64,000 nucleotides of DNA from NCBI GenBank assembly GCA_965221775.1, contig CBDCSU010000006.1, forward strand, positions 1,696,001 to 1,760,000, in the 5' to 3' direction. The notes below the pieces were generated by a model that made no database searches, was not told the origin of the DNA, and worked only from the letters and a program-made list of their open reading frames with translations. Source of the DNA: Candidatus Latescibacterota bacterium (lineage in GTDB: Bacteria > Latescibacterota > UBA2968 > UBA8231). This document shows positions 2 through 10,737 of the stretch, in pieces. The number at the start of each line of letters is the position of its first letter. Position 1 is the stretch's first letter. The position numbers and the translations under genes were made by a program.

Positions 2-664
2 CTGCGCCTGCTGGCGGCCGAAGCGATCGCCCGCCTCTGCCGCGACGCGGCGCCCGCGATCCACGCGGCGCGCGAGGCCCCGCCCGCCGAGTCCGGGATC
101 CCCGGCGCCGCCGACTCCACGTCGGCCGAGGTCCTCCGCACCCATCTGCTCGAGGGCGGTGCCCCCCGCGAGAGGTTCGGGACGCCGCCGGCCCCCCACG
201 CGGGTCTCGGACTGCCGGGCTGCGCCCCGGGCGCCAGCCCCCTGTCGAGCTACGTCGACCTGGCCATGCAGCGGCAGTTGCTGTGGATCGCGGGCCGGCG
301 CTCCGACCCCCTCACGGCGGAGGACCTCGAGCGCATCCTGCTGGAGACGCGCGAGGCCCGGGAGGCGGCGGAGCGCGTGCGCCGCGGCAGCCGCCGCTAC
401 TGGACGCTCAAGTGGCTCGAGGGCTTCGGGGACGAGGCGCGGCTGGAGTGCGTGGTCGCCGAACCGCGCGGCCCCGGGCACCTGGTACTGCTGCCCGAGG
501 GTCCGGTGGCGTGCCATGTCCCGGCCCCCCGGGGGCAGCGGCTGCAGGCGGCGCCGGGCCAGCGCCTGCGGGTGCGGGTGGAGCAGGCCTCCGCCCGGCG
601 CGACCTGTTGCGGCTGGCCGACCCCGAGCCCGCCCGGAGAGCGGACCCGCTCCCACCGGCCTGA
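2..664 (+). CDS. RNB-domain (RNase II/R-like) protein, 5'-truncated by window edge, degenerate motif
   Basis: Frame open from base 2: LRLLAAEAIAR...HAGLGLPGCAPGASPLSSYVDLAMQRQL resembles RNB motifs (MLLANEAVA; HFGLGL..YTHFTSPIRRYxDL..HRQL), followed by an S1-like tail. Confidence 0.7.
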   Translation: MRLLAAEAIARLCRDAAPAIHAAREAPPAESGIPGAADSTSAEVLRTHLLEGGAPRERFGTPPAPHAGLGLPGCAPGASPLSSYVDLAMQRQLLWIAGRRSDPLTAEDLERILLETREAREAAERVRRGSRRYWTLKWLEGFGDEARLECVVAEPRGPGHLVLLPEGPVACHVPAPRGQRLQAAPGQRLRVRVEQASARRDLLRLADPEPARRADPLPPA

Positions 665-666
665 GA

Positions 667-2019
667 ATGGTCCGAGCGGGCCTGTGCGCGGCCCTCGCGG
701 GGGCCTGCTGGCTGCTGGCCGGGGCCGCCGCCGCGGGTGAGCCGGAGACCGAGGCAAGCCGATTCTGGCCCGCCTGGCGCGGCCCCCTGGGCACCGGCGC
801 CTCTCCCCACGCTGAGCCCCCGCTCCAGTGGAGCCAGACCCGCAACCTGCGCTGGAAGGCGTCCCTGCCCGGCGGCGGCCACTCTACGCCGGTGGTCTGG
901 GGCGACCGGGTCTTCATCACCGCCGCAGTCCCGTACGGCGAGCCCCTGCCGCCGACGTACAGCGGGCTGCCGGGCGGCCACGACGAACGGCCGGTCACCC
1001 ATCGCCACCGGTTCGTCGTCCTTGCCCTGAGCCGCACCACGGGGCGGGTCCTCTGGCAGCGGGTCGTGCGCCACGACCTGCCCCGCGCCGGGGGCCACTA
1101 CACCGCCAGCCTGGCCTCCGCCTCGGCGGTGACCGACGGCGAGCACCTGGTCGCCTCCTTCGGCTCCCACGGGATCTACGGCCTCGACCTCGAGGGGGAG
1201 CTGCTGTGGGAGTTGGACCTCGGCCCCATGGAGCCGCTTCACGGCCACGGCGAAGGCAGCTCGCCGGCGCTCGCCGGCGGGACGCTGATCGTCAACTGGG
1301 ACCACGAGGGCGAGTCCTTCCTCGCCGCCTTCGACAAGAGGACGGGCGGCCTGCGCTGGAAGGCTCCGCGCGAGCCGGCCTCGTCCTGGACCACCCCCAT
1401 CGTGACCGACGCCGGCGGCCGCATCCAGGTCGTGGTCAGCGGCTCCGGGGGAGTGCGCGGCTACGACCTGGCCGACGGCCGCAGGATCTGGGAGTGCCCC
1501 GGCCTCTCGGTGGAGAACGTGGTCTCCACGCCGGTGGCCGGCTTCGGCCTCGTCTTCGCGGGCAGCAGCTACGACCGGCAGGCGGTGCTGGCGATTCCGC
1601 TGCAAGCCGCCGCGGACGAGACCGGCGGGCCCCGCCGGGCCGCCTGGAGCCGCACCCGGGGGGCGCCGTACGTCCCCTCCTTCCTGCTCTACGGGGACGC
1701 CCTCTACTTTGTCCGCCACTTCCAGAACATCCTCACCCGCGTCGACGCCCGAACGGGGCGGGACCGGCCGGGGCCGATGCGCCTGAAGGGCCTCGACCGG
1801 GTCTTCGCCTCTCCCGTCGCCGCTGCCGGCCGCGTGTACGTCACCAGCCGCAACGGCGTCACCGTGGTGGTCAGCCACGCCGATTCGCCCGCCCTCCTGG
1901 CCGTCAACCATCTCGACGACAGCTTCAGCGCCTCGGCGGCACTGGCCGGCGGCGAGCTCTACCTGCGAGGACGACACCACCTCTACTGCATCGCGGAGCA
2001 TCCGCCCCCGGCCCGGTGA
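667..2019 (+). CDS. Secreted PQQ-binding-like (BamB-like) beta-propeller protein
   Basis: Signal peptide, WPAWRGP, STPVVWGDRVF and repeated SSP/STP...W propeller blades. Confidence 0.85.
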   Translation: MVRAGLCAALAGACWLLAGAAAAGEPETEASRFWPAWRGPLGTGASPHAEPPLQWSQTRNLRWKASLPGGGHSTPVVWGDRVFITAAVPYGEPLPPTYSGLPGGHDERPVTHRHRFVVLALSRTTGRVLWQRVVRHDLPRAGGHYTASLASASAVTDGEHLVASFGSHGIYGLDLEGELLWELDLGPMEPLHGHGEGSSPALAGGTLIVNWDHEGESFLAAFDKRTGGLRWKAPREPASSWTTPIVTDAGGRIQVVVSGSGGVRGYDLADGRRIWECPGLSVENVVSTPVAGFGLVFAGSSYDRQAVLAIPLQAAADETGGPRRAAWSRTRGAPYVPSFLLYGDALYFVRHFQNILTRVDARTGRDRPGPMRLKGLDRVFASPVAAAGRVYVTSRNGVTVVVSHADSPALLAVNHLDDSFSASAALAGGELYLRGRHHLYCIAEHPPPAR

Positions 2020-2044
2020 ACCCGGCAGGCGCCGGCGGTGTCAA
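2018..2044 (+). promoter_or_regulatory. Candidate ECF-type promoter upstream of the sigma gene
   Basis: GAACCC-N16-GTCAA, then GGAGG RBS and ATG at 2060. Confidence 0.35.
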
Positions 2045-2059
2045 CCGGGTGGAGGCCGG

Positions 2060-2665
2060 ATGGGGAAGAGCGACGAGGAGCTGGTCCGCGGGGTGATCGA
2101 GGGGCGGCAGGAAGACTTCGCCGAGCTCTTCGAGCGCTACCGCGCCGATGTGCAGCGGCACCTGCGGCGGATCCATCGCCATGACGAGGACGCCGCCGAC
2201 GTCGGGCAGGAGGTGTTCCTGCGCCTGTGGCACCGCGCCGGACAGTGGAAGGGCGACGGCCCCCTGCTCGCCTGGCTGCTGCGCATCGCCACCAACCTCG
2301 CCCTCAACCACATCCGCTCGGTCCGGCGCCGCCGCGAGCAGCCGCTGCAGCCGCCCCCCGCCATGGACGGAGAGGAGGAGGACGACACCCGGGTTCCGGA
2401 GTGGATGATCGACGCCTCCACCCTTCCGCCCGACGAGGTCCTGGCCGTGGCCGAGCGCCGGCGGCTGCTGCGCGGCCTGGTGACGCGTCTGCCCGAGGAC
2501 GGGCGCAGGGTCATCCGGCTGATCTACGACGGCCACCTGAACACGCGCCAGGCCGCTACCGAGCTGGGCATACCCGAGGGCACGGTGAAGTCCCGGATCC
2601 ACCACGCCCGCAAACAGATCGCTCGATCCTGGCGCGACCTGGGGATCGACTGGGAGGAGGACTAG
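2060..2665 (+). CDS. ECF sigma-70 family RNA polymerase sigma factor
   Basis: Region 2 DAADVGQEVFLRLW / AWLLRIATNLALN; region 4 ELGIPEGTVKSRIHHARK. Confidence 0.95.
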   Translation: MGKSDEELVRGVIEGRQEDFAELFERYRADVQRHLRRIHRHDEDAADVGQEVFLRLWHRAGQWKGDGPLLAWLLRIATNLALNHIRSVRRRREQPLQPPPAMDGEEEDDTRVPEWMIDASTLPPDEVLAVAERRRLLRGLVTRLPEDGRRVIRLIYDGHLNTRQAATELGIPEGTVKSRIHHARKQIARSWRDLGIDWEED

Positions 2666-2667
2666 GC

Positions 2668-5600
2668 ATGGCGACCGCACCGTCCAACCCGTGGCACAAG
2701 GCGTCCTTCGACGAATTCCTGCACCGCCGCCTTCCCGAGTTGCTGGCCGCACGGCTGGGGGTGACCACCTGCCGCGCCGCAGGGGCCGGCGGTCACGCCT
2801 GCCGGATCGTCCTCGGCGGGCGTTCCGCCGAGGGGGACTTCGAGGTCGAGTACGACGGGCTGCCCGCACCGGACGAGGAGGGCGTCTTCCGGTTGCCGGG
2901 TTCCCCGGACCCGGACGGCGGGCCCCGCCTGCCGCCCCCGAGGACGTACCACGGGGGGGAGCGCGAGCCCTCGGGCGAAGTCGAGCTGGTCGTGCTGCCC
3001 GTGGCCGACCGGGACGACCTGGCCGAGGCCCGAATCGACTGTCTCGGCGACCGGCTCTCGACCTTCATCGAGTCCCGCCTCGGGGAGGTCCCCGGCCACA
3101 CCCCCCTCGACGGGTCCCTCCTGCGGACCCTGGCGCCTCTGAAGGACTGGTTCCACTCCTTCCTGGCCTCCTGCGGCGAGCGGCTCGACGACACCAACTG
3201 GCTGTCCCGGTCCGCGCACCTGCGCCGGATCCTGGTCCCGGACCGCCAGGAGGTATTCACCCCCGGCCACTTCGGCCGCACCTGCCCCTTCGAGACCCCG
3301 GAGGGACCGAACATCGGCCGCGTCCTGACGATCTCCCGGGGCGCGGAGATCCGCGGCCGCCGGCTGGTGATCGTCGACGCGAAGCCCGCGGAGGGACTGG
3401 GCATGTCCAGCGCATGCATCCCCTTCCTCGAGCACGACGACGGCAACCGCGTGCTCATGGGCGCCAACATGATGCGCCAGTGGCTGGCGCCCGCCGAGAG
3501 AGAGCCGGCCTTCGTGCGGACCGGCCTCGAGCCGCGGGCGCCGGACTTCTGGTGCGGCCGGAACCTGCTCACGGCTCTGCTCTCGTGGGACGGGGACGCC
3601 TTCGAGGACGCCGTGCTGCTCAGCCGGTCCGGCGCCCGCAAGCTCGCCTGCCCGGAGCCCCTCGAGCCCGGCGACAAGCTCAGCAACCGCCACGGGATCA
3701 AGGGCGTCGTGTCCCGGGTGGCGCCCGACGAGGAGATGCCGCGGCTGCCCGACGGCACCCCCGTGGAGCTGGTCTTCAGCTTCTCCGGCATTCCGTCCCG
3801 CTGGGTCATGGGGCTGGTCCGGGAGGCCGCCCTCGGACACGCGGCTCACCTGCGGGGGGAGCCCGCCGTCGTGCCCCCCTTCAAGGCGCCTTCCGACGAG
3901 CAGTTGCGGAACCTGCTTCAGGGCAGCGGCCTGCGCGCCGACGGCATGACCACGCTGACCCTCGACGGCACTCCCCTGCGGCGGCCGGCCACGGCCGGAT
4001 CGGTCTACTGGGGCTGCACCGTGCATCGCGCTCGCCCGAAACTGAGGGCCGCCGTCCACCCCGACGACCGGGGCCAGCGCCTGGGGGAGATGGAGGTGCG
4101 GGCCCTGGCCGAGGCCGGGGCGCCCGCGGTGATCCGGGAGCTGACCAACACCTGCTCCAGCCAACGCGGCGACGCCGGTTCCCTGGCCGAGAGGGCCGCC
4201 GCCGGACCGGTCGAGCCGGCGAGCACCCCCTCTCCCGCCTTCTCGGCCCTGGCGGCGGGTCTGGCGCAGGCCGGAATCCGCGCCGAGGCCGGCCCCCGGG
4301 GGGTCGCCTTCCGGTTGGAACCACCCCGGGGGCCGACGCTGTCCCTGGCCGCCGGCGTGCCCCACCCCTGGTTGCCGGGGAAGACCCTGTCCGAGGTCTG
4401 CGCAGCCGAGGGGGCCGCCGGATATCCCGAGGTCCTCGCCGCCAACGGCAGGCTCGCCCGCCTGCCGAAGGACGGGGCTCCCGAGCCCCTGGCAGCCGCG
4501 GCTCTCGACGATCTGGCCGCCGCTGTCTCGGACCTGTACGACGGACTGGCCGCCGCGCCGCGGCTGGGGCGGGATGGGAATGTCCTCTTCAGCGGCCGTG
4601 CGGTGATCGTCCCCGGGGGCGATCTGCCGGCCGACCGGCTCGGCCTCCCGGCGGAGATGGCCTGGAGCCTCTTCGGGCCGCTGGTGGCCCGCGCGCTGGG
4701 GGATCCCGAAGCGGTGGGGCAGCGCTCCACCGAGGCCGAGGCCGCCCTCGCCGCCGCCATGGAGGCCCACTGGGTCATCCTCGGCCACGCTCCATCGGTC
4801 AGTCCCACGGCGATGCTGGCCTTCCGGCCCCTGCCGATCCCGGGCCACGCCATCCGTCTCTGCCCCCTGGCCTGCGGCCTGTTGGACGCCGATTTCGACG
4901 GCGACCAGGCGGCCGTCTTCCTGCCTCTCACGGAGGCGGCTCAGCGCGAGACCCGCGAGCGGCTGTCCATCGCCGGCCACCTGGCCCGTGACCCCGGCCT
5001 CGTGGAGGACCTCTTCCCGCGCATGGACGCCCTCTTCGGGCTGGCCTGCCTCAGCCGCTCGGCAGCGGGCCGGAAGGCGATTACGCAAGCCGCCGGCCGG
5101 GAGCCGAACCTCGAGGGCGGCCTCCTCACCCGCGAGGCGGCGGCGATGCTGCTGCGGGGTGTCCTGACCGACGAGGGGGAGCAGGCGGCCCTGGGCGTGG
5201 CCGCGGAACTGATGCGGTTGGGGTTCGAGACGGCCCGCGCGGAGGGAGGCTCCGTGGGGCCCTTCATCGGCAGCACCCTCGAACTGCCCGTCCCCCCGGG
5301 GGAGGACGACGCGCCGCAGTGGCAGGCCTGCACGGAGGAAGCCCGGGCGATCGTCGCCGGCTTCCGCGACTACGACGACCACGACCTGGGGGCCGCCGCC
5401 CTGCTGTGCCACAGCGGCGCCCGGGCCACGGTCCATCAGCTCACCACCCTGGTGGGGCCGGGCGGACTCGTTCGCGACGTCGAGGGCCGGGTCCTCGGAG
5501 TCGCCCGCTCCTGGCGGGAGGGACTGACCGCGCGGGAGGTGCTGGCCCGGGTCGTCGGCGCCCGCCGCGGCCTGTTCCGCGTCCTGACGGAGTTCGGATC

Positions 5601-5769
5601 CCTCGGCCGGGAGCGGTCCGGGTCCGGGCCGGAGGGGTTCGGCGTCCTGGCCCGGGCCCGCCGGGTCGAGCGCCCGGGCCTCGTCTTCGCGAGGGCTGCC
5701 CTCAGGGGCGAGGTCGATCCCCTGGAAGACGAGCAATCGCGGCTGCTGGTCGGACTGTCCAGGCCGTGA
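2668..5769 (+). CDS. Miniature single-chain RNA polymerase beta/beta' fusion homologue (1033 aa)
   Basis: Collinear RpoB motifs (GRTCPFETPEGPNIG, IPFLEHDDGNRVLMGANMMRQ, FEDAV, GDKLSNRHGIKG, GQRLGEME) then RpoC motifs (SGRAVI, DADFDGDQ, SGAR, REGL..GARRGL) in one open frame. Confidence 0.93.
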   Translation: MATAPSNPWHKASFDEFLHRRLPELLAARLGVTTCRAAGAGGHACRIVLGGRSAEGDFEVEYDGLPAPDEEGVFRLPGSPDPDGGPRLPPPRTYHGGEREPSGEVELVVLPVADRDDLAEARIDCLGDRLSTFIESRLGEVPGHTPLDGSLLRTLAPLKDWFHSFLASCGERLDDTNWLSRSAHLRRILVPDRQEVFTPGHFGRTCPFETPEGPNIGRVLTISRGAEIRGRRLVIVDAKPAEGLGMSSACIPFLEHDDGNRVLMGANMMRQWLAPAEREPAFVRTGLEPRAPDFWCGRNLLTALLSWDGDAFEDAVLLSRSGARKLACPEPLEPGDKLSNRHGIKGVVSRVAPDEEMPRLPDGTPVELVFSFSGIPSRWVMGLVREAALGHAAHLRGEPAVVPPFKAPSDEQLRNLLQGSGLRADGMTTLTLDGTPLRRPATAGSVYWGCTVHRARPKLRAAVHPDDRGQRLGEMEVRALAEAGAPAVIRELTNTCSSQRGDAGSLAERAAAGPVEPASTPSPAFSALAAGLAQAGIRAEAGPRGVAFRLEPPRGPTLSLAAGVPHPWLPGKTLSEVCAAEGAAGYPEVLAANGRLARLPKDGAPEPLAAAALDDLAAAVSDLYDGLAAAPRLGRDGNVLFSGRAVIVPGGDLPADRLGLPAEMAWSLFGPLVARALGDPEAVGQRSTEAEAALAAAMEAHWVILGHAPSVSPTAMLAFRPLPIPGHAIRLCPLACGLLDADFDGDQAAVFLPLTEAAQRETRERLSIAGHLARDPGLVEDLFPRMDALFGLACLSRSAAGRKAITQAAGREPNLEGGLLTREAAAMLLRGVLTDEGEQAALGVAAELMRLGFETARAEGGSVGPFIGSTLELPVPPGEDDAPQWQACTEEARAIVAGFRDYDDHDLGAAALLCHSGARATVHQLTTLVGPGGLVRDVEGRVLGVARSWREGLTAREVLARVVGARRGLFRVLTEFGSLGRERSGSGPEGFGVLARARRVERPGLVFARAALRGEVDPLEDEQSRLLVGLSRP

Positions 5770-5854: not shown

Positions 5855-6784
5855 CTAGCCGTCCGGCCCGCGCAACTCGATGGCGTCCAGCAGTTGCTGA
5901 GGGTTGGCCAGGTCCACGGGCAGGAGCACGTCCGTCTTGCCGTCGGCCAGACCGCGCAACGTCTTGAGATAGCGCTCCGCCAGCTGCAGGTGCACCGACT
6001 GGGCGCCGCCGGCGACGCTGATCGAGGCGGCGATCTTCTCGATCGACTCGGCCGTCGCATGGGCGATGGCCCGGACCTCCTCGGCCTGACCCTGGGCCTC
6101 GTTGATGGTGCGCTGCATCTCGCCCTCCGAGCGGTTGATCAGCTCCAGGCGCCGGCCCTCCGAGGTGTTGATGCGGCTCTGCTTGTCGCCCTCGGACTGG
6201 GCCACGACGGCGCGGCGGTCGCGCTCGGCGGTGACCTGCTTCTCCATGGCGTCCTTCACCGTCGGCGGCGGCGACAGGTTCTTGATCTCGTAGCGGTGGA
6301 CGCGGATCCCCCAGGTCTCCCCCGACCTCTCCAGCACCTCCACCACTTTGGCCGAGATCAGGTCGCGCTCCTCGAAGGTCCGGTCGAGCTCGAGGGTGCC
6401 GATGACCGAACGGGTCGTGGTCTGCGCCAGTTGCATGGCGGCGAAGGAGTAGTTGGTCACCCCGTAACTGGCCTTCACCGGATCGGTGACCGAGATGTAG
6501 AGGACGCCGTCCACCTCGACCTGGACCTCGTCCCGGGTGAAGCACTCCTGGGGCGGCACGTCGACGGTCTCCTCCTTGAGATCGCGGATGAAGGCCACCT
6601 TCTCGATGAAGGGCACGAGGGCGTGGAAACCGGGGTTCAGAGTTCTGGAGTACTTGCCGAGCCGCTCGACGACGTACGCCGACTGGGTCGGCACCAGCCG
6701 GATCGAGCGCAGGAACTTGACGATCAGGACCAGGAACAGGACGGCCCAGACGATGAGGTTGAAGATCTCGAAGACGGTCGACAT
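5855..6784 (-). CDS. SPFH/band 7 (QmcA/paraslipin-like) protein
   Basis: N-terminal TM, VVERLGKY, LAQTTTRSVIG, MEKQVTAER. Confidence 0.92.
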   Translation of the reverse strand: MSTVFEIFNLIVWAVLFLVLIVKFLRSIRLVPTQSAYVVERLGKYSRTLNPGFHALVPFIEKVAFIRDLKEETVDVPPQECFTRDEVQVEVDGVLYISVTDPVKASYGVTNYSFAAMQLAQTTTRSVIGTLELDRTFEERDLISAKVVEVLERSGETWGIRVHRYEIKNLSPPPTVKDAMEKQVTAERDRRAVVAQSEGDKQSRINTSEGRRLELINRSEGEMQRTINEAQGQAEEVRAIAHATAESIEKIAASISVAGGAQSVHLQLAERYLKTLRGLADGKTDVLLPVDLANPQQLLDAIELRGPDG

Positions 6785-6785
6785 G

Positions 6786-7718
6786 TCAGGCCTCCTTCTT
6801 CTGGTTCGGCACGCCGGCGGCGACCTCGCCCAGCCCCTCGAAGAAGCCCTTGATCCGGGCCAGCTCCAGGGGCACGACGGAGACGCTGGACTTGGCGGCG
6901 ATCTCCCGGATCGTCTCGATGTACTCCTCCACCAGCTGCATCTTCAGCGCCGCCGGTCCGCCTTCCTTCTGCACCGCGGCGGCGATCCGCTCGGTGCCCT
7001 CGGCGGTGGCCTCGGCGATGATGGAGATCGCCTCGGCCTGTCCCCTGGCGACGTTGATCCGGCGTTGCTTCTCGCCCTCGGAGATGTTGATCTCCTCCTG
7101 GCGCTCGCCCTCGGAGAGGTTGATGGTGCTCTCCTTCTCCGCCGCGGCGCGGGTGATCTCGGCGCGCTTCTCGCGCTCCGCCTCCATCTGCTTCTCGAGG
7201 GTGTTCACCACGTTCGCCGAGGGCGTGATGTTGCGCAGCTCGTAGCGCAGCACCTTGATCCCCCAGGGATTCGAGGCCTTGTCGATCTCCTGGACGATCG
7301 TCTCGTTCAGGGACTCGCGCTCGTAGAACGACTGGCCCAGGGTCAGCTTGCCGATCTCGGCCCGCATCGTCGTCTGCGCCAGGTTGATGCTGGCGCGGCG
7401 GTAGTCCTCGATGCCGTAGCTGGCGCGCTCGGGATCGAGGACCTGCAGGTAGACCAGGCCGTCCACCTCGACCTGGATGTTGTCGCGCGTGATGCAGGCC
7501 TGGCTGGGGACGTCGATCACCTGCTCGCGCGTCTCGTGGCGATAGGCGATGCGGTCGAAAAAGGGGATGAGGAAGTGGAACCCCGGCTGCAGGACCGCCC
7601 GGAACTTGCCCAGCCGCTCGACGATGACCGCCGCGCGCATGGGCACGACGACAAATGTCTTGAGCACCAGGAACAGGGCGATCAGCACGAGGATCGTGAA
7701 GTACGTCAGAAGGGGCAT
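6786..7718 (-). CDS. SPFH/band 7 (QmcA/paraslipin-like) protein
   Basis: IVERLGKF, CITRDNIQVEVDG, LAQTTMRAEIG, KQMEAEREKRA. Confidence 0.93.
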   Translation of the reverse strand: MPLLTYFTILVLIALFLVLKTFVVVPMRAAVIVERLGKFRAVLQPGFHFLIPFFDRIAYRHETREQVIDVPSQACITRDNIQVEVDGLVYLQVLDPERASYGIEDYRRASINLAQTTMRAEIGKLTLGQSFYERESLNETIVQEIDKASNPWGIKVLRYELRNITPSANVVNTLEKQMEAEREKRAEITRAAAEKESTINLSEGERQEEINISEGEKQRRINVARGQAEAISIIAEATAEGTERIAAAVQKEGGPAALKMQLVEEYIETIREIAAKSSVSVVPLELARIKGFFEGLGEVAAGVPNQKKEA

Positions 7719-7721
7719 CGC

Positions 7722-8186
7722 TCAATTCTCCTGTAAGGGACCGCCGCCGTCGGGCCCGGCGGCCTCGACGACCCACACGAGGTTCTCGCGATAGGCGAGG
7801 ATCGCCTTCTCTCCCGCCTCGATGGTGCCGTCGTAGCAGATCGCCTGCCAGGTGGCGTCCCGGTAGTGGATCCGCCCCGCCTGGTCCGGCGCGATCCTCT
7901 CCACCACGTCCACGACCGTGCCGTAGGCGTCCTCCTCCTCGTCGGTGGACTGTCGCTCGGACCCGCCTCCGACGAAGCGCAGGAAGAGGCCGCGCAGGCT
8001 CAGCAGCAGGACGAGGGAGAGGATGAACCAGGTGGTGAGGGCCGGGATCAGGCCGTCGATCCAGCCCAGCCAGATGAGGGCGGCCACGATCAGGGCGCTC
8101 GACCCGAGAAAGCCGAGCACCATTCCGGGCAGGAACAACTCCAGCAGGATCATGACGGCGCCGGCGACGATCCAGGCTGTGAGCAT
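7722..8186 (-). CDS. NfeD family membrane protein
   Basis: Three hydrophobic helices (LELFLPG) plus C-terminal OB fold (GRIHYRDATWQA); adjacent to SPFH genes. Confidence 0.88.
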   Translation of the reverse strand: MLTAWIVAGAVMILLELFLPGMVLGFLGSSALIVAALIWLGWIDGLIPALTTWFILSLVLLLSLRGLFLRFVGGGSERQSTDEEEDAYGTVVDVVERIAPDQAGRIHYRDATWQAICYDGTIEAGEKAILAYRENLVWVVEAAGPDGGGPLQEN

Positions 8187-8318
8187 AGGGCCTCCGGGGA
8201 TTGGCAGGCGGAGACGGCGTCGGGGAAGGATAGGGCGGATGAGAGGGGGGAGCGAGATTGCGGGGAAGGCCGGGCGCCCGGAGCGCACCGGGGCGGCCTC
8301 CCCCGGCGGTGCAAGGGA

Positions 8319-9678: not shown

Positions 9679-9786
9679 CCTCCTTCCTCGGTCACACGGG
9701 CGGCCCCCGACCCGGGAGCCGCTGACCCGGCCTCACCGCCCGAGCCCGGCCGGATTCGTCTCGCCCCGCCGGCAGCGGCAGTCCTC

Positions 9787-10737
9787 ATGAAGATCGTCGT
9801 TCTCGATGGCTACACCCTGAATCCCGGCGACCTCAGCTGGTCCGGCCTCGAATCCCTGGGCGATGTCACCGTTCACGAACACTCCACCGCCGATCAGGTC
9901 CTGGAGAGAGCCCACGGCGCCGAGATCCTGCTGACCAACAAGACCGTCGTCTCCGGTGAGCACATCGCCCGGCTCCCCGGCCTGCGGTACATCGGCGTGC
10001 TGGCCACGGGCTTCAACATCGTCGACGTGGAAGCCGCCCGTGAGCGCGGCATCCCGGTGTGCAACGTGCCCACCTACGGCACCGCCTCGGTAGCCCAGGC
10101 CGCCATCGCCCACCTCCTCAACCTGACCCAGCGCATCGGCGACCACGCCGCCGCCGTCAACGCCGACCGCTGGGCCGAGTGCCGGGACTTCAGCTTCTGG
10201 GACCACCCTCTCGTCGAGCTCGAGGGACTCCTCTTCGGCGTCGTCGGCATGGGCCGCATCGGCCGCCGCACCGCCGAGCTGGCGAGGGCCTTCGGCATGC
10301 AGGTCCTGGCCCACACGCGCACCCCCGATCCGTCCCTCGACTGGGTGGAGCACGCGGGTGTGGACGACCTCTTCCGCCGCTGTGACGCGGTCTCCCTGCA
10401 CTGCCCGCTGACGCCGGAGACCGAGGGGATCGTCGATCGCAGGCGGCTGTCGCTGATGAAGCCGACGGCCTTCCTCATCAACACGAGCCGCGGGCCGCTG
10501 GTGGACGAGGAGGCCCTGAGAGAGGCTCTCGAGGAGGGGCGCATCGCCGGCGCCGGGCTGGACGTGATGGCCGTGGAGCCTCCGGCCTCCGGGCATCCGC
10601 TCTACGGAGTGCGGAACTGCTACATCACGCCCCACAACGCCTGGGCCACGGGCGCCGCCCGCAAGCGCCTGCTCGACACCGTGGTCGACAACGTGGGGGC
10701 CTTTCTCGACGGGAGTCCTCGGAACGTCGTCAACTGA
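9787..10737 (+). CDS. D-2-hydroxyacid (glycerate) dehydrogenase
   Basis: MKIVVLDGYTLNPGDL, GMGRIG, INTSRG, TPHNAW. Confidence 0.92.
   Translation: MKIVVLDGYTLNPGDLSWSGLESLGDVTVHEHSTADQVLERAHGAEILLTNKTVVSGEHIARLPGLRYIGVLATGFNIVDVEAARERGIPVCNVPTYGTASVAQAAIAHLLNLTQRIGDHAAAVNADRWAECRDFSFWDHPLVELEGLLFGVVGMGRIGRRTAELARAFGMQVLAHTRTPDPSLDWVEHAGVDDLFRRCDAVSLHCPLTPETEGIVDRRRLSLMKPTAFLINTSRGPLVDEEALREALEEGRIAGAGLDVMAVEPPASGHPLYGVRNCYITPHNAWATGAARKRLLDTVVDNVGAFLDGSPRNVVN

Follow-up and report, generated by a model that had tools for sequence, protein, structure and literature searches.

A reduced single-chain beta-beta' RNA polymerase encoded beside an extracytoplasmic function sigma factor in Latescibacterota and other bacteria

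A stretch of 64,000 nucleotides (nt) from a Candidatus Latescibacterota bacterium (GenBank assembly GCA_965221775.1, contig CBDCSU010000006.1, positions 1,696,001-1,760,000 of the forward strand), referred to below as the window, encodes a protein, P0001, in which a reduced beta subunit of RNA polymerase is fused to a reduced beta' subunit. Directly upstream lies a gene for a sigma factor of the extracytoplasmic function (ECF) type, P0002 (Table 1). P0001 and its relatives are a family of reduced, single-chain two-barrel RNA polymerases, notable for a dedicated sigma factor and promoter. On balance, we regard P0001 as probably a functional mini RNA polymerase that is under selection and forms a module with this sigma factor.

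The P0001 frame is open from 2227 and ends with the stop codon at 5767-5769. The ATG at 2668 is the likely start, being preceded by GGAGGAGG, lying 2 nt past the stop of the upstream gene and opening the conserved N-terminus. The four motifs from which a first-pass annotation argued all lie in this one frame at the positions it gave: EVELVVLP at 2977 (amino acid (aa) 104), DDLAEARIDCLGD at 3013 (aa 116), FEDAVLLS at 3601 (aa 312) and GDKLS at 3670 (aa 335). The annotation took the gene to be rpoB, and here it has to be corrected. The Pfam domains found are Rpb2_6 (E 6e-27, two stretches), Rpb2_3 (domain 3 of Rpb2, E 9.5e-8, aa 173-227) and Rpb1_2 (domain 2 of Rpb1, E 9e-14, aa 700-764), with a weak match to Rpb2 domain 7; P0001 is thus not RpoB, but a beta-like N-terminal half joined to a beta'-like C-terminal half. 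The region first described is the N-terminal third of this fusion, which contains more excisions than the two then named. The genome of the window (G000) also has an intact, full-size rpoB (1806.6 bits) and rpoC (1771.9 bits) on another contig (C4), and P0001 is therefore an extra paralogue. It is about one third the size of a normal RNA polymerase (the E. coli subunits have 1342 and 1407 aa), and falls far below the cut-offs of the RpoB equivalog model TIGR02013 (163.5 bits in 4 stretches against 801.15) and the RpoC equivalog model TIGR02386 (100.4 bits against 963.5). NCBIfam models assign it to the bacterial, not the archaeal, beta/beta' type, and it matches beta chains in the PDB with E values down to 3.7e-41; the similarity goes well beyond chance.

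Relatives of P0001 were collected (270 in all), and the 179 of 970-1110 aa were aligned with it (n=180); the other 91, fragments or full-size fusions, were excluded from this family alignment. It was compared by hhalign with canonical alignments of RpoB (E. coli and 73 sequences) and RpoC (E. coli and 66), with E. coli K-12 rpoB and rpoC as the numbering reference (the first row of the RpoB alignment). The other canonical sequences came from loci of a genome-contig scan and from the rpoB and rpoC of G000 itself. P0001 aa 113-543 correspond to beta 443-1341 (probability 100%, E 3.6e-75), and this alignment begins exactly at ADRDDLAEARIDCLGD against DDIDHLGNRRIRSVGE. The beta' side aligns with E 1.9e-48. 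A separate search of P0001 with hidden Markov models (HMMs) recovered the same homology blocks.

The blocks end at beta 139 and resume at beta 443, and the beta-2 lobe has therefore been lost: beta ~148-442, about 295 residues, is replaced by 2-3 residues past the VVLP strand, close to the roughly 290 aa first proposed. The flap is absent as well. FED (E313/D314, equivalent to beta E813/D814) is separated from GDK (K337, equivalent to beta K1065) by 21 residues, against about 250 in E. coli (the first estimate was about 15 against 240), and 5 residues bridge the place of beta 826-1058. Both halves of the beta barrel are spared, as had been noted, and both align within a single open frame. The first carries R261, N267, R270, Q271, E313 and D314, and the second K337, K345, R378 and H453. 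Three further segments of beta are missing. Beta 583-650, whose place is taken by a hairpin turn, coincides within 8 residues with external-1 as Pfam delimits it in E. coli beta (591-656); beta 710-792 is cut out at aa 292/293; and beta 1125-1178 is missing between the blocks aa 331-396 (beta 1059-1124) and aa 397-467 (beta 1179-1252), which are followed by aa 468-543 (beta 1266-1341).

The beta' part is reduced as well. It is without the zinc-finger N-terminus, without beta' 125-268 (the clamp core, which from E. coli numbering we take to include the lid), and without beta' 317-341, which we take to be the rudder tip. The clamp helices are present, followed by the beta' barrel, whose catalytic loop, DADFDGD, occupies aa 740-746 (nt 4885-4905). 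P0001 aa 806-903 correspond to beta' 580-704, and the alignment block of the bridge helix itself spans aa 904-978 (beta' 716-792). Past the bridge helix there is only a weak match to beta' 1329-1354, and hhalign finds no P0001 counterpart of the trigger loop and jaw (beta' ~793-1328; Pfam Rpb1_5, E. coli 766-1315). P0001 thus lacks the flap of a cellular-type beta and the trigger loop and jaw of a cellular-type beta'.

The excisions look selected rather than degenerative. The first-pass annotation had read them as domain-precise and had named breakpoints inside secondary structure, differing at random among homologues, as the sign of the opposite; neither is seen. Among the 180 full-length members the junction lengths are nearly fixed, and equal in 80% or more: FED to GDK measures 21 aa at both the 10th and the 90th percentile (range 17-46), and VVVP to CxGE 13 aa at both (range 10-17). 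In an AlphaFold2 model of P0001 (111 sequences; mean predicted local distance difference test score (pLDDT) 94.9, predicted TM-score 0.93), the lobe junction falls in a loop that connects strand 105-108 to helix 126-135, that of external-1 forms a hairpin turn between strands 226-229 and 232-235, and that of the flap is a loop leading from helix 320-325 to strand 337-340 (pLDDT 93-98). The only poorly predicted stretch, aa 82-100, lies within a lineage-specific insert (aa 78-103) with a pLDDT of about 50 and a ratio of nonsynonymous to synonymous substitution rates (dN/dS) of 0.75. The gene as a whole has a dN/dS of 0.29-0.38 (Nei-Gojobori; three congeneric relatives, 6 within-genus pairs), and the lobe junction 0.14. 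The fixed breakpoints, these ratios, the kept catalytic residues and the match of one excision to external-1 together support selection well.

That P0001 is a decaying remnant of an rpoB/rpoC pseudogene, with a frame open by accident, might be suggested by the large portions of both parents that are gone. This reading is next to impossible, and we consider it refuted by the open frame in 65 genomes of the phylum, by breakpoints identical family-wide, by the dN/dS of about 0.3 and the model confidence, and by the manner in which the sigma-polymerase cassette is lost. One genus member without the cassette (G167; L145, G167:C1:3850000-3868000, ~9735-9932) has a site syntenic with window 2017-2292, where the promoter motif and a 162-bp sigma fragment (85% identical) remain between the same flanking genes, with a 93-bp piece resembling the 3' end of the polymerase gene slightly further along. 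The site is a deletion relic; here the cassette was deleted outright and did not decay in place.

The residues for catalysis and substrate contact are retained by 168-179 of the 180 members. The DxDGD Asp triad of the beta'-type barrel is present at D742 (174 members), D744 (178) and D746 (177), the two beta-barrel lysines at K337 (175) and K345 (176), and the FED Asp at D314 (168); R378 (179), H453 (174), R261 (170) and P709 of the beta' barrel (172) are equally well kept. P0001 thus has both the Asp triad and the two invariant lysines with the FED Asp that mark the two-barrel superfamily, and would be expected to catalyse RNA synthesis. The lysines and the FED Asp are listed in PMC2919709 as Rpb2 K979, K987 and D837. 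Of the invariant Arg and Pro of the beta' barrel (Rpb1 R446 and P448), the Pro is kept as P709, and the Arg position is R in 162 of the 180 members and His in P0001 and its close relatives. The DFDGD triad is lost in about 2-3 of the 180 members; GFSAQ, GFGGL and DFDGN replace it in P0168, P0194 and P0173, which may be inactive derivatives. A fold search places bacterial beta/beta' chains first (E 7.4e-23), with TM-scores to the query of 0.3-0.4, as expected because the query is a fusion. The best match in a viral fold search is weaker (E 5.9e-18), and a 'minor tail protein' of the P23-45 polymerase kind appears there at rank 32.

P0002 consists of sigma regions 2 and 4 only (Pfam Sigma70_r2, E 1.8e-14, and Sigma70_r4_2, E 2.2e-12, both above cut-offs), and scores 89.9 bits with TIGR02937 (cut-off 42.9), which makes it an ECF (group 4) sigma; none of the specific ECF group models matched P0002 at its cut-off. 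Its association with the polymerase is close. Of 37 loci examined, 34 have an orthologue (42-94% identity by tblastn) on the same strand and upstream of the polymerase; two of the remaining three are cut by contig ends and one (G144) is without the sigma. The sigma and the polymerase are the only genes common to five loci with long flanks, namely the window and four from genomes titled Poribacteria, Caldilineaceae and Latescibacterota, and within the genus full-length sigma orthologues are confined to the 5 genomes with the polymerase. In the sigma alignment even the linker is conserved, with an acidic patch and a VPxWMID motif. Four of the 34 loci, all of one sub-lineage (L129, L132, L135 and L136, in G108, G087, G077 and G090), have an ATP-binding cassette (ABC) exporter gene of 586-597 aa on the same strand between sigma and polymerase; the L135 copy carries Pfam ABC_membrane and ABC_tran, and the exporter may be operon cargo.

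The clamp helices, which the family keeps, are the docking site of sigma region 2 in all known holoenzymes. Complex prediction with P0001 aa 1-799 and the sigma gave a score of 0.56, whereas none of 3 controls scored above 0.00; at least 68% of contacts recur between runs, the partner pLDDT is at least 66, and the output named no interface. The mark applied is reached by 58 of 80 solved complexes and by 2 of 110 mismatched pairs, and passing scores of 0.60 or below comprise only 7 of those 80 solved complexes together with both passing mismatches. These observations weakly suggest that the mini-enzyme uses its adjacent sigma.

Ahead of the sigma gene stands a conserved ECF-type promoter (Table 1), followed by GGAGG at 2051-2055 and the sigma ATG at 2060. 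The motif TGAAC(C/T)-N13-14-(C)GG(T/C)GTC is matched as a regular expression in 23 of 24 sigma-upstream regions, the 24th having a near-variant by eye, and starts 47-64 nt before the sigma start codon in 20 of the 23. We take its layout to be that of an ordinary ECF-like -35/-10 promoter. The first-pass annotation had held that, with the flap gone, -35 recognition would have to work differently. The question is real, since the flap is lost and a dedicated ECF sigma lies adjacent; the expectation is borne out in part only, as the conserved promoter has an ordinary layout and may be read by the mini-enzyme or by the host core. With regard to expression, positions 1912-2987, which take in the whole sigma gene and 320 nt at the start of the polymerase gene, are matched at about 92% by a metatranscriptome contig of a related strain. 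It fits co-transcription of the two, with DNA carry-over as a possible source. RNA contigs of run X20 cover the polymerase gene only in part. The data fit a self-activating sigma-polymerase module: as the two genes lie behind a conserved ECF-type promoter, the module is probably self-activating.

The relatives are, judged by sequence, a discrete family. Among the best 120 of 307 matches, lengths range from 621 to 1092 aa, with 117 of 991-1092 aa at 96-100% coverage, and 139 rows outrank the first full-size fused beta-beta' protein in a library of 50%-identity representatives. At a threshold of E<=1e-60, the family occurs in 65 of 168 genomes of the window's phylum (no internal stops), in 32 of 176 of the phylum to which a genome titled Poribacteria belongs (a single match contains a TGA), and in 4 of 301 genomes sampled from the class that includes a Caldilineaceae genome (a single match contains a TAA). 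These counts come from a separate genome search; in a scan of the genome contigs only 4 of 80 retained loci belong to the family, most being canonical rpoB/rpoC. The source names of the relatives are Gemmatimonadota, Latescibacterota, Hydrogenedentes, Armatimonadota and Poribacteria, which are submitters' labels partly at odds with the genome grouping, and every named relative is annotated 'hypothetical protein'. Near-identical DNA is present in sponge and marine metagenome runs of five studies besides the probable source study. Carriers include sponge-associated bacteria, and the gene is accessory and cleanly losable.

Some loci depart from the usual pattern. In G219 (G219:C2:821107-824886, minus strand) the polymerase is encoded by two abutting frames of 610 aa (query aa 9-555) and 495 aa (556-1030), split exactly at the beta/beta' joint (aa 555/556), with the sigma directly upstream; the gene is either naturally unfused here or frameshifted. 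On a contig titled Candidatus Latescibacterota (L011/L098, G162:C165), the sigma is identical to that of a genome of the window's genus, and the polymerase is only 47% identical to the window's, against 84-89% for other genus members. The mismatch points to inconsistent labels, mis-binning or gene transfer.

We propose that a bacterial rpoB-rpoC pair would have given rise to the enzyme, through fusion and the loss of entire peripheral domains: the lobe, external-1 and flap of beta, and the zinc-finger N-terminus, clamp core, lid, rudder tip, trigger loop and jaw of beta'. Both double-psi barrels, the Mg-binding DFDGD loop, the two barrel lysines and the R and H residues that would contact the nucleoside triphosphate (NTP) would have been kept, together with the fork, the bridge helix and the clamp helices. 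The ECF sigma gene upstream would be translationally coupled to the polymerase gene in a two-gene module, and region 2 of the sigma would dock on the clamp helices. The sigma would then direct the mini-enzyme to promoters of the TGAACC-N13-CGGTGTC type. Without flap, lid and zinc finger the enzyme would have neither a closed RNA exit channel nor the usual seat of region 4; region 4 would therefore need another anchorage, perhaps provided by the sigma linker with its unusual conservation. It is quite possible, and we do not presume it, that the whole system consists of two polypeptides, a 1033-aa core and a 201-aa ECF sigma, with a promoter class of its own, without alpha, omega, flap, lid, zinc finger or trigger loop, and with region 4 anchored as in no known holoenzyme.

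Several observations weigh against a selected, active enzyme served by its own sigma. On the side of catalysis, P0001 has no trigger loop, and it differs at two positions that we take to contact the NTP sugar in canonical enzymes: at beta' R425 P0001 and its close relatives have His (R in 162 of 180 members), and at beta' N458 P0001 has Asp (N in 108, D in 42 and Q in 17 of 180). A dN/dS of about 0.3 is, moreover, not very strict. On the side of the sigma, the flap, the usual seat of region 4, is missing, sigma regions 2 and 4 look like those of an ordinary ECF, and the promoter geometry is conventional. The polymerase of G144 is intact (G144:C1:3661948-3664233, L137; a 1052-aa open frame), and no sigma orthologue was found within 3.6 kb of it or at E<=1e-25 in this single-contig assembly, which is 93% complete. 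In G166 (L119, G166:C6, 6821-7423, minus strand) the polymerase is intact and the sigma has an in-frame TGA, located in the linker between regions 2 and 4, which could be a sequencing error, a split sigma or early loss; sigma dN/dS values involving this locus were discarded as artefacts of the in-frame stop. The complex prediction is only weak, and its pass may reflect the model's memory of solved sigma-core complexes. A regulon search revealed no target beyond the operon itself, and in G000 it found only one CGGTGTC-type site, the operon's own. G000 has 4 matches to the strict pattern TGAAC[CT]-N12-14-CGG[TC]GTC, where base composition alone would predict about 2.6, the other three sites lying in ambiguous, probably coding, high-GC sequence. 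A looser motif shows no enrichment, with 2-8 sites in five other carriers, 3 in G000 and 2-5 in four non-carriers. The extra sites inspected in G010, G099 and G042 are located in a repeat or inside open reading frames (ORFs). In G010, a carrier genome, two identical copies of TGAACC-N13-CGGTGTC (G010:C1:244168-244193 and 1476025-1476050; L139, L140) lie inside a repeat of at least about 90 bp, and the ORFs downstream are short and unannotated. The host core could be the sigma's real partner.

Such a partnership is at the centre of one alternative, which we find somewhat unlikely: an active polymerase that makes no use of the sigma. The sigma and the host core would only switch the operon on, and the mini-enzyme would work on single-stranded or nicked DNA, on ends or on RNA, in priming, R-loop formation or conflict, as single-chain relatives without a sigma do. 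The loss of flap, lid, zinc finger and rudder tip together, the single promoter found, the ordinary look of the sigma and the G144 locus are all as this alternative would have it, and YonO, as described in part of PMC5467207, is active without a trigger loop or those domains. What it leaves unexplained is the specific retention of the clamp helices, the site of region 2, the strict co-occurrence of sigma and polymerase in the genus and their standing as sole shared neighbours across phyla, and the unusual conservation of the sigma linker; the complex prediction, with its caveat of memory, also leans away from it. The retained clamp helices would equally serve a sigma-binding decoy, an anti-sigma-like mimic of the core that titrates the sigma from the host core. 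P0001 occupies the operon slot where ECF operons usually have an anti-sigma gene, it would be the sigma's translationally coupled partner behind an apparently self-regulated promoter, and the five long-flank loci share no other conserved neighbour, hence no recognisable anti-sigma. A decoy would have no need of the Mg triad, the barrel lysines, R378, H453, the fork or the bridge helix, yet nearly all members keep these, only about 2-3 of 180 having lost DFDGD, and 1033 aa is a costly decoy; we therefore hold this reading to be decidedly unlikely.

It is also highly unlikely that P0001 is the polymerase of a mobile or viral element, acquired as cargo, spreading by transfer and transcribing the element rather than host genes. 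The patchy spread over the three groups of genomes, the two divergent types within one genus (G162 against the others) and the neighbours that differ between phyla would be in keeping with such an origin. Against it, no integrase or phage genes are common to the five loci, the GC content of the gene (0.73) equals that of its flanks, the locus is syntenic within the genus and leaves a clean deletion relic in G167, and cellular beta/beta' chains are closer in fold than viral ones. Searches of both proteins gave no match to the PADLOC defence-system models, and in PHROGs only generic beta/beta' and sigma families. The reading we favour remains that of a functional mini RNA polymerase paired with its own sigma, and this enzyme may itself read the promoter in front of the module.

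Table 1. Features of the sigma-polymerase locus in the window, with E. coli numbering for beta and beta'.
Feature	Coordinates	Strand	Basis or remark
ECF-type promoter, TGAACC (2017-2022), 13-nt spacer, CGGTGTC (2036-2042)	2017..2042	+	conserved motif
ECF (group 4) sigma gene, P0002, 201 aa	2060..2665	+	stop 2663-2665, 2 nt before polymerase ATG
Mini RNA polymerase gene, P0001	2668..5769	+	1033-aa single chain, reduced beta fused to reduced beta'
N-terminal beta1/protrusion segment, aa 9-77 = beta 30-139	2692..2898	+	hhalign 44.9%, E 2.2e-4; weak HMM match
Lineage-specific low-complexity insert, aa 78-103, outside family core	2899..2976	+	G72 to C125 52 aa, family median 26
Lobe junction, EVELVV (aa 104-109), 2-3 residues, ADRDDL (aa 113 = beta D443)	2977..3015	+	
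Beta1 return and fork, aa 113-229 = beta 443-582, including GRTCPFETPEGPNIG	3004..3354	+	hhalign; Rpb2_3 aa 173-227
External-1 junction, aa 230-233, hairpin turn in place of beta 583-650	3355..3366	+	hhalign
First half of beta barrel, aa 234-325 = beta 651-709 and 793-825	3367..3642	+	hhalign
Flap junction, aa 326-330, LACPE	3643..3657	+	beta 826-1058 (flap/SBHM with SI2) without counterpart
Second half of beta barrel and beta C-terminus, aa 331-543 = beta 1059-1124, 1179-1252, 1266-1341	3658..4296	+	
Beta/beta' joint, aa 544-585	4297..4422	+	weak counterpart of beta' 75-124, LxLAxPVPHPW strand
Beta' clamp helices, aa 586-633 = beta' 269-316	4423..4566	+	hhalign mean confidence 8.0; helices 586-601, 606-627
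Beta' barrel with catalytic loop, aa 634-803 = beta' 342-521	4567..5076	+	Pfam Rpb1_2, hhalign
F-loop and bridge helix, aa 904-985 = beta' 716-792	5377..5622	+	continuous helix 955-985

The genes flanking the locus show synteny within the genus and none across phyla. Upstream (661-2019, plus strand) lies a gene for a secreted PQQ_2/BamB-like beta-propeller, whose stop codon is the TGA of TGAACC and so overlaps the -35 element. Downstream and convergent (5855-8288, minus strand) are two SPFH/Band 7 genes and an NfeD gene.

Bacterial RpoB and RpoC, including full-size beta-beta' fusions of the NF011417 and NF007172 types, share with P0001 the beta-beta' order, homologous blocks, the catalytic residues, the fork, the bridge helix and the clamp helices. 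P0001 differs in being shorter, in lacking the peripheral domains and in coexisting with a normal core enzyme. Jumbo phage polymerases (phiKZ, AR9 nvRNAP) and the tape-measure-fused polymerase of P23-45 have a reduced or rearranged beta/beta' and their own specificity subunit, and come as several separate polypeptides or as fusions with virion proteins; to our knowledge they do not use sigma-70-family factors, and they are structurally more distant from P0001 than cellular beta/beta'. The nearest architectural analogue, likened here by description, is K2ORF6p, the large subunit of the RNA polymerase of the yeast linear plasmid pGKL2, a 982-aa Rpb2::Rpb1 fusion that has lost about half of what its parents contained (PMC2919709, in the portion describing the fusion). 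Both are single chains of about 1000 aa in which a reduced beta precedes a reduced beta', in P0001 at aa 9-543 and 586-985, respectively. K2ORF6p is eukaryotic and cytoplasmic, and its partners, as far as the relevant portions of PMC2919709 and PMC6211774 state, are K2ORF7p (with the beta' C-terminal regions), a capping enzyme and a helicase, with no sigma. P0001 lies on a bacterial chromosome, and its loci share only sigma and polymerase, with no small subunit, capping enzyme or helicase of a linear plasmid. The killer-plasmid polymerases keep a flap insert (PMC7824862, in its part on these enzymes); the P0001 family is without a flap and has a sigma. YonO of the B. subtilis prophage SPbeta is a single-chain two-barrel polymerase of about 100 kDa, efficient without trigger loop, flap or lid, and is described in the part of PMC5467207 concerned as having nearly no beta/beta' similarity beyond the catalytic residues and no known sigma. 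P0001, in contrast, is plainly derived from beta/beta', is linked to a sigma and has no phage genes in common around it in the five long-flank loci.

A literature search found no description of a reduced bacterial beta-beta' fusion with a linked sigma; one may exist in Iyer and Aravind 2012 (J Struct Biol) or in the supplementary files of the ECF reclassification paper, whose main text does not mention RNA polymerase subunits as neighbours. The K2ORF6p fusion is termed unique among polymerases by its authors in one passage of PMC6211774, and P0001 would be its bacterial counterpart. One section of PMC7824862 describes the flap as the docking site of sigma region 4 and generalises that cellular-type beta barrels always keep this sigma-binding insert, which the P0001 family would contradict as the generalisation is worded there.

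A compact polymerase and sigma pair whose promoter measures 26 bp would lend itself well to orthogonal expression. If the enzyme is active with its sigma, it would set a lower bound for a sigma-directed polymerase of the multisubunit type, and the roles of the peripheral domains, in catalysis and promoter use or in regulation, would become testable. The mini-enzyme may thus show the minimum machinery for promoter-directed transcription. Should the system indeed consist of two polypeptides, it would be the smallest sigma-dependent RNA polymerase, and an orthogonal, self-amplifying transcription module carried by bacteria of several phyla.

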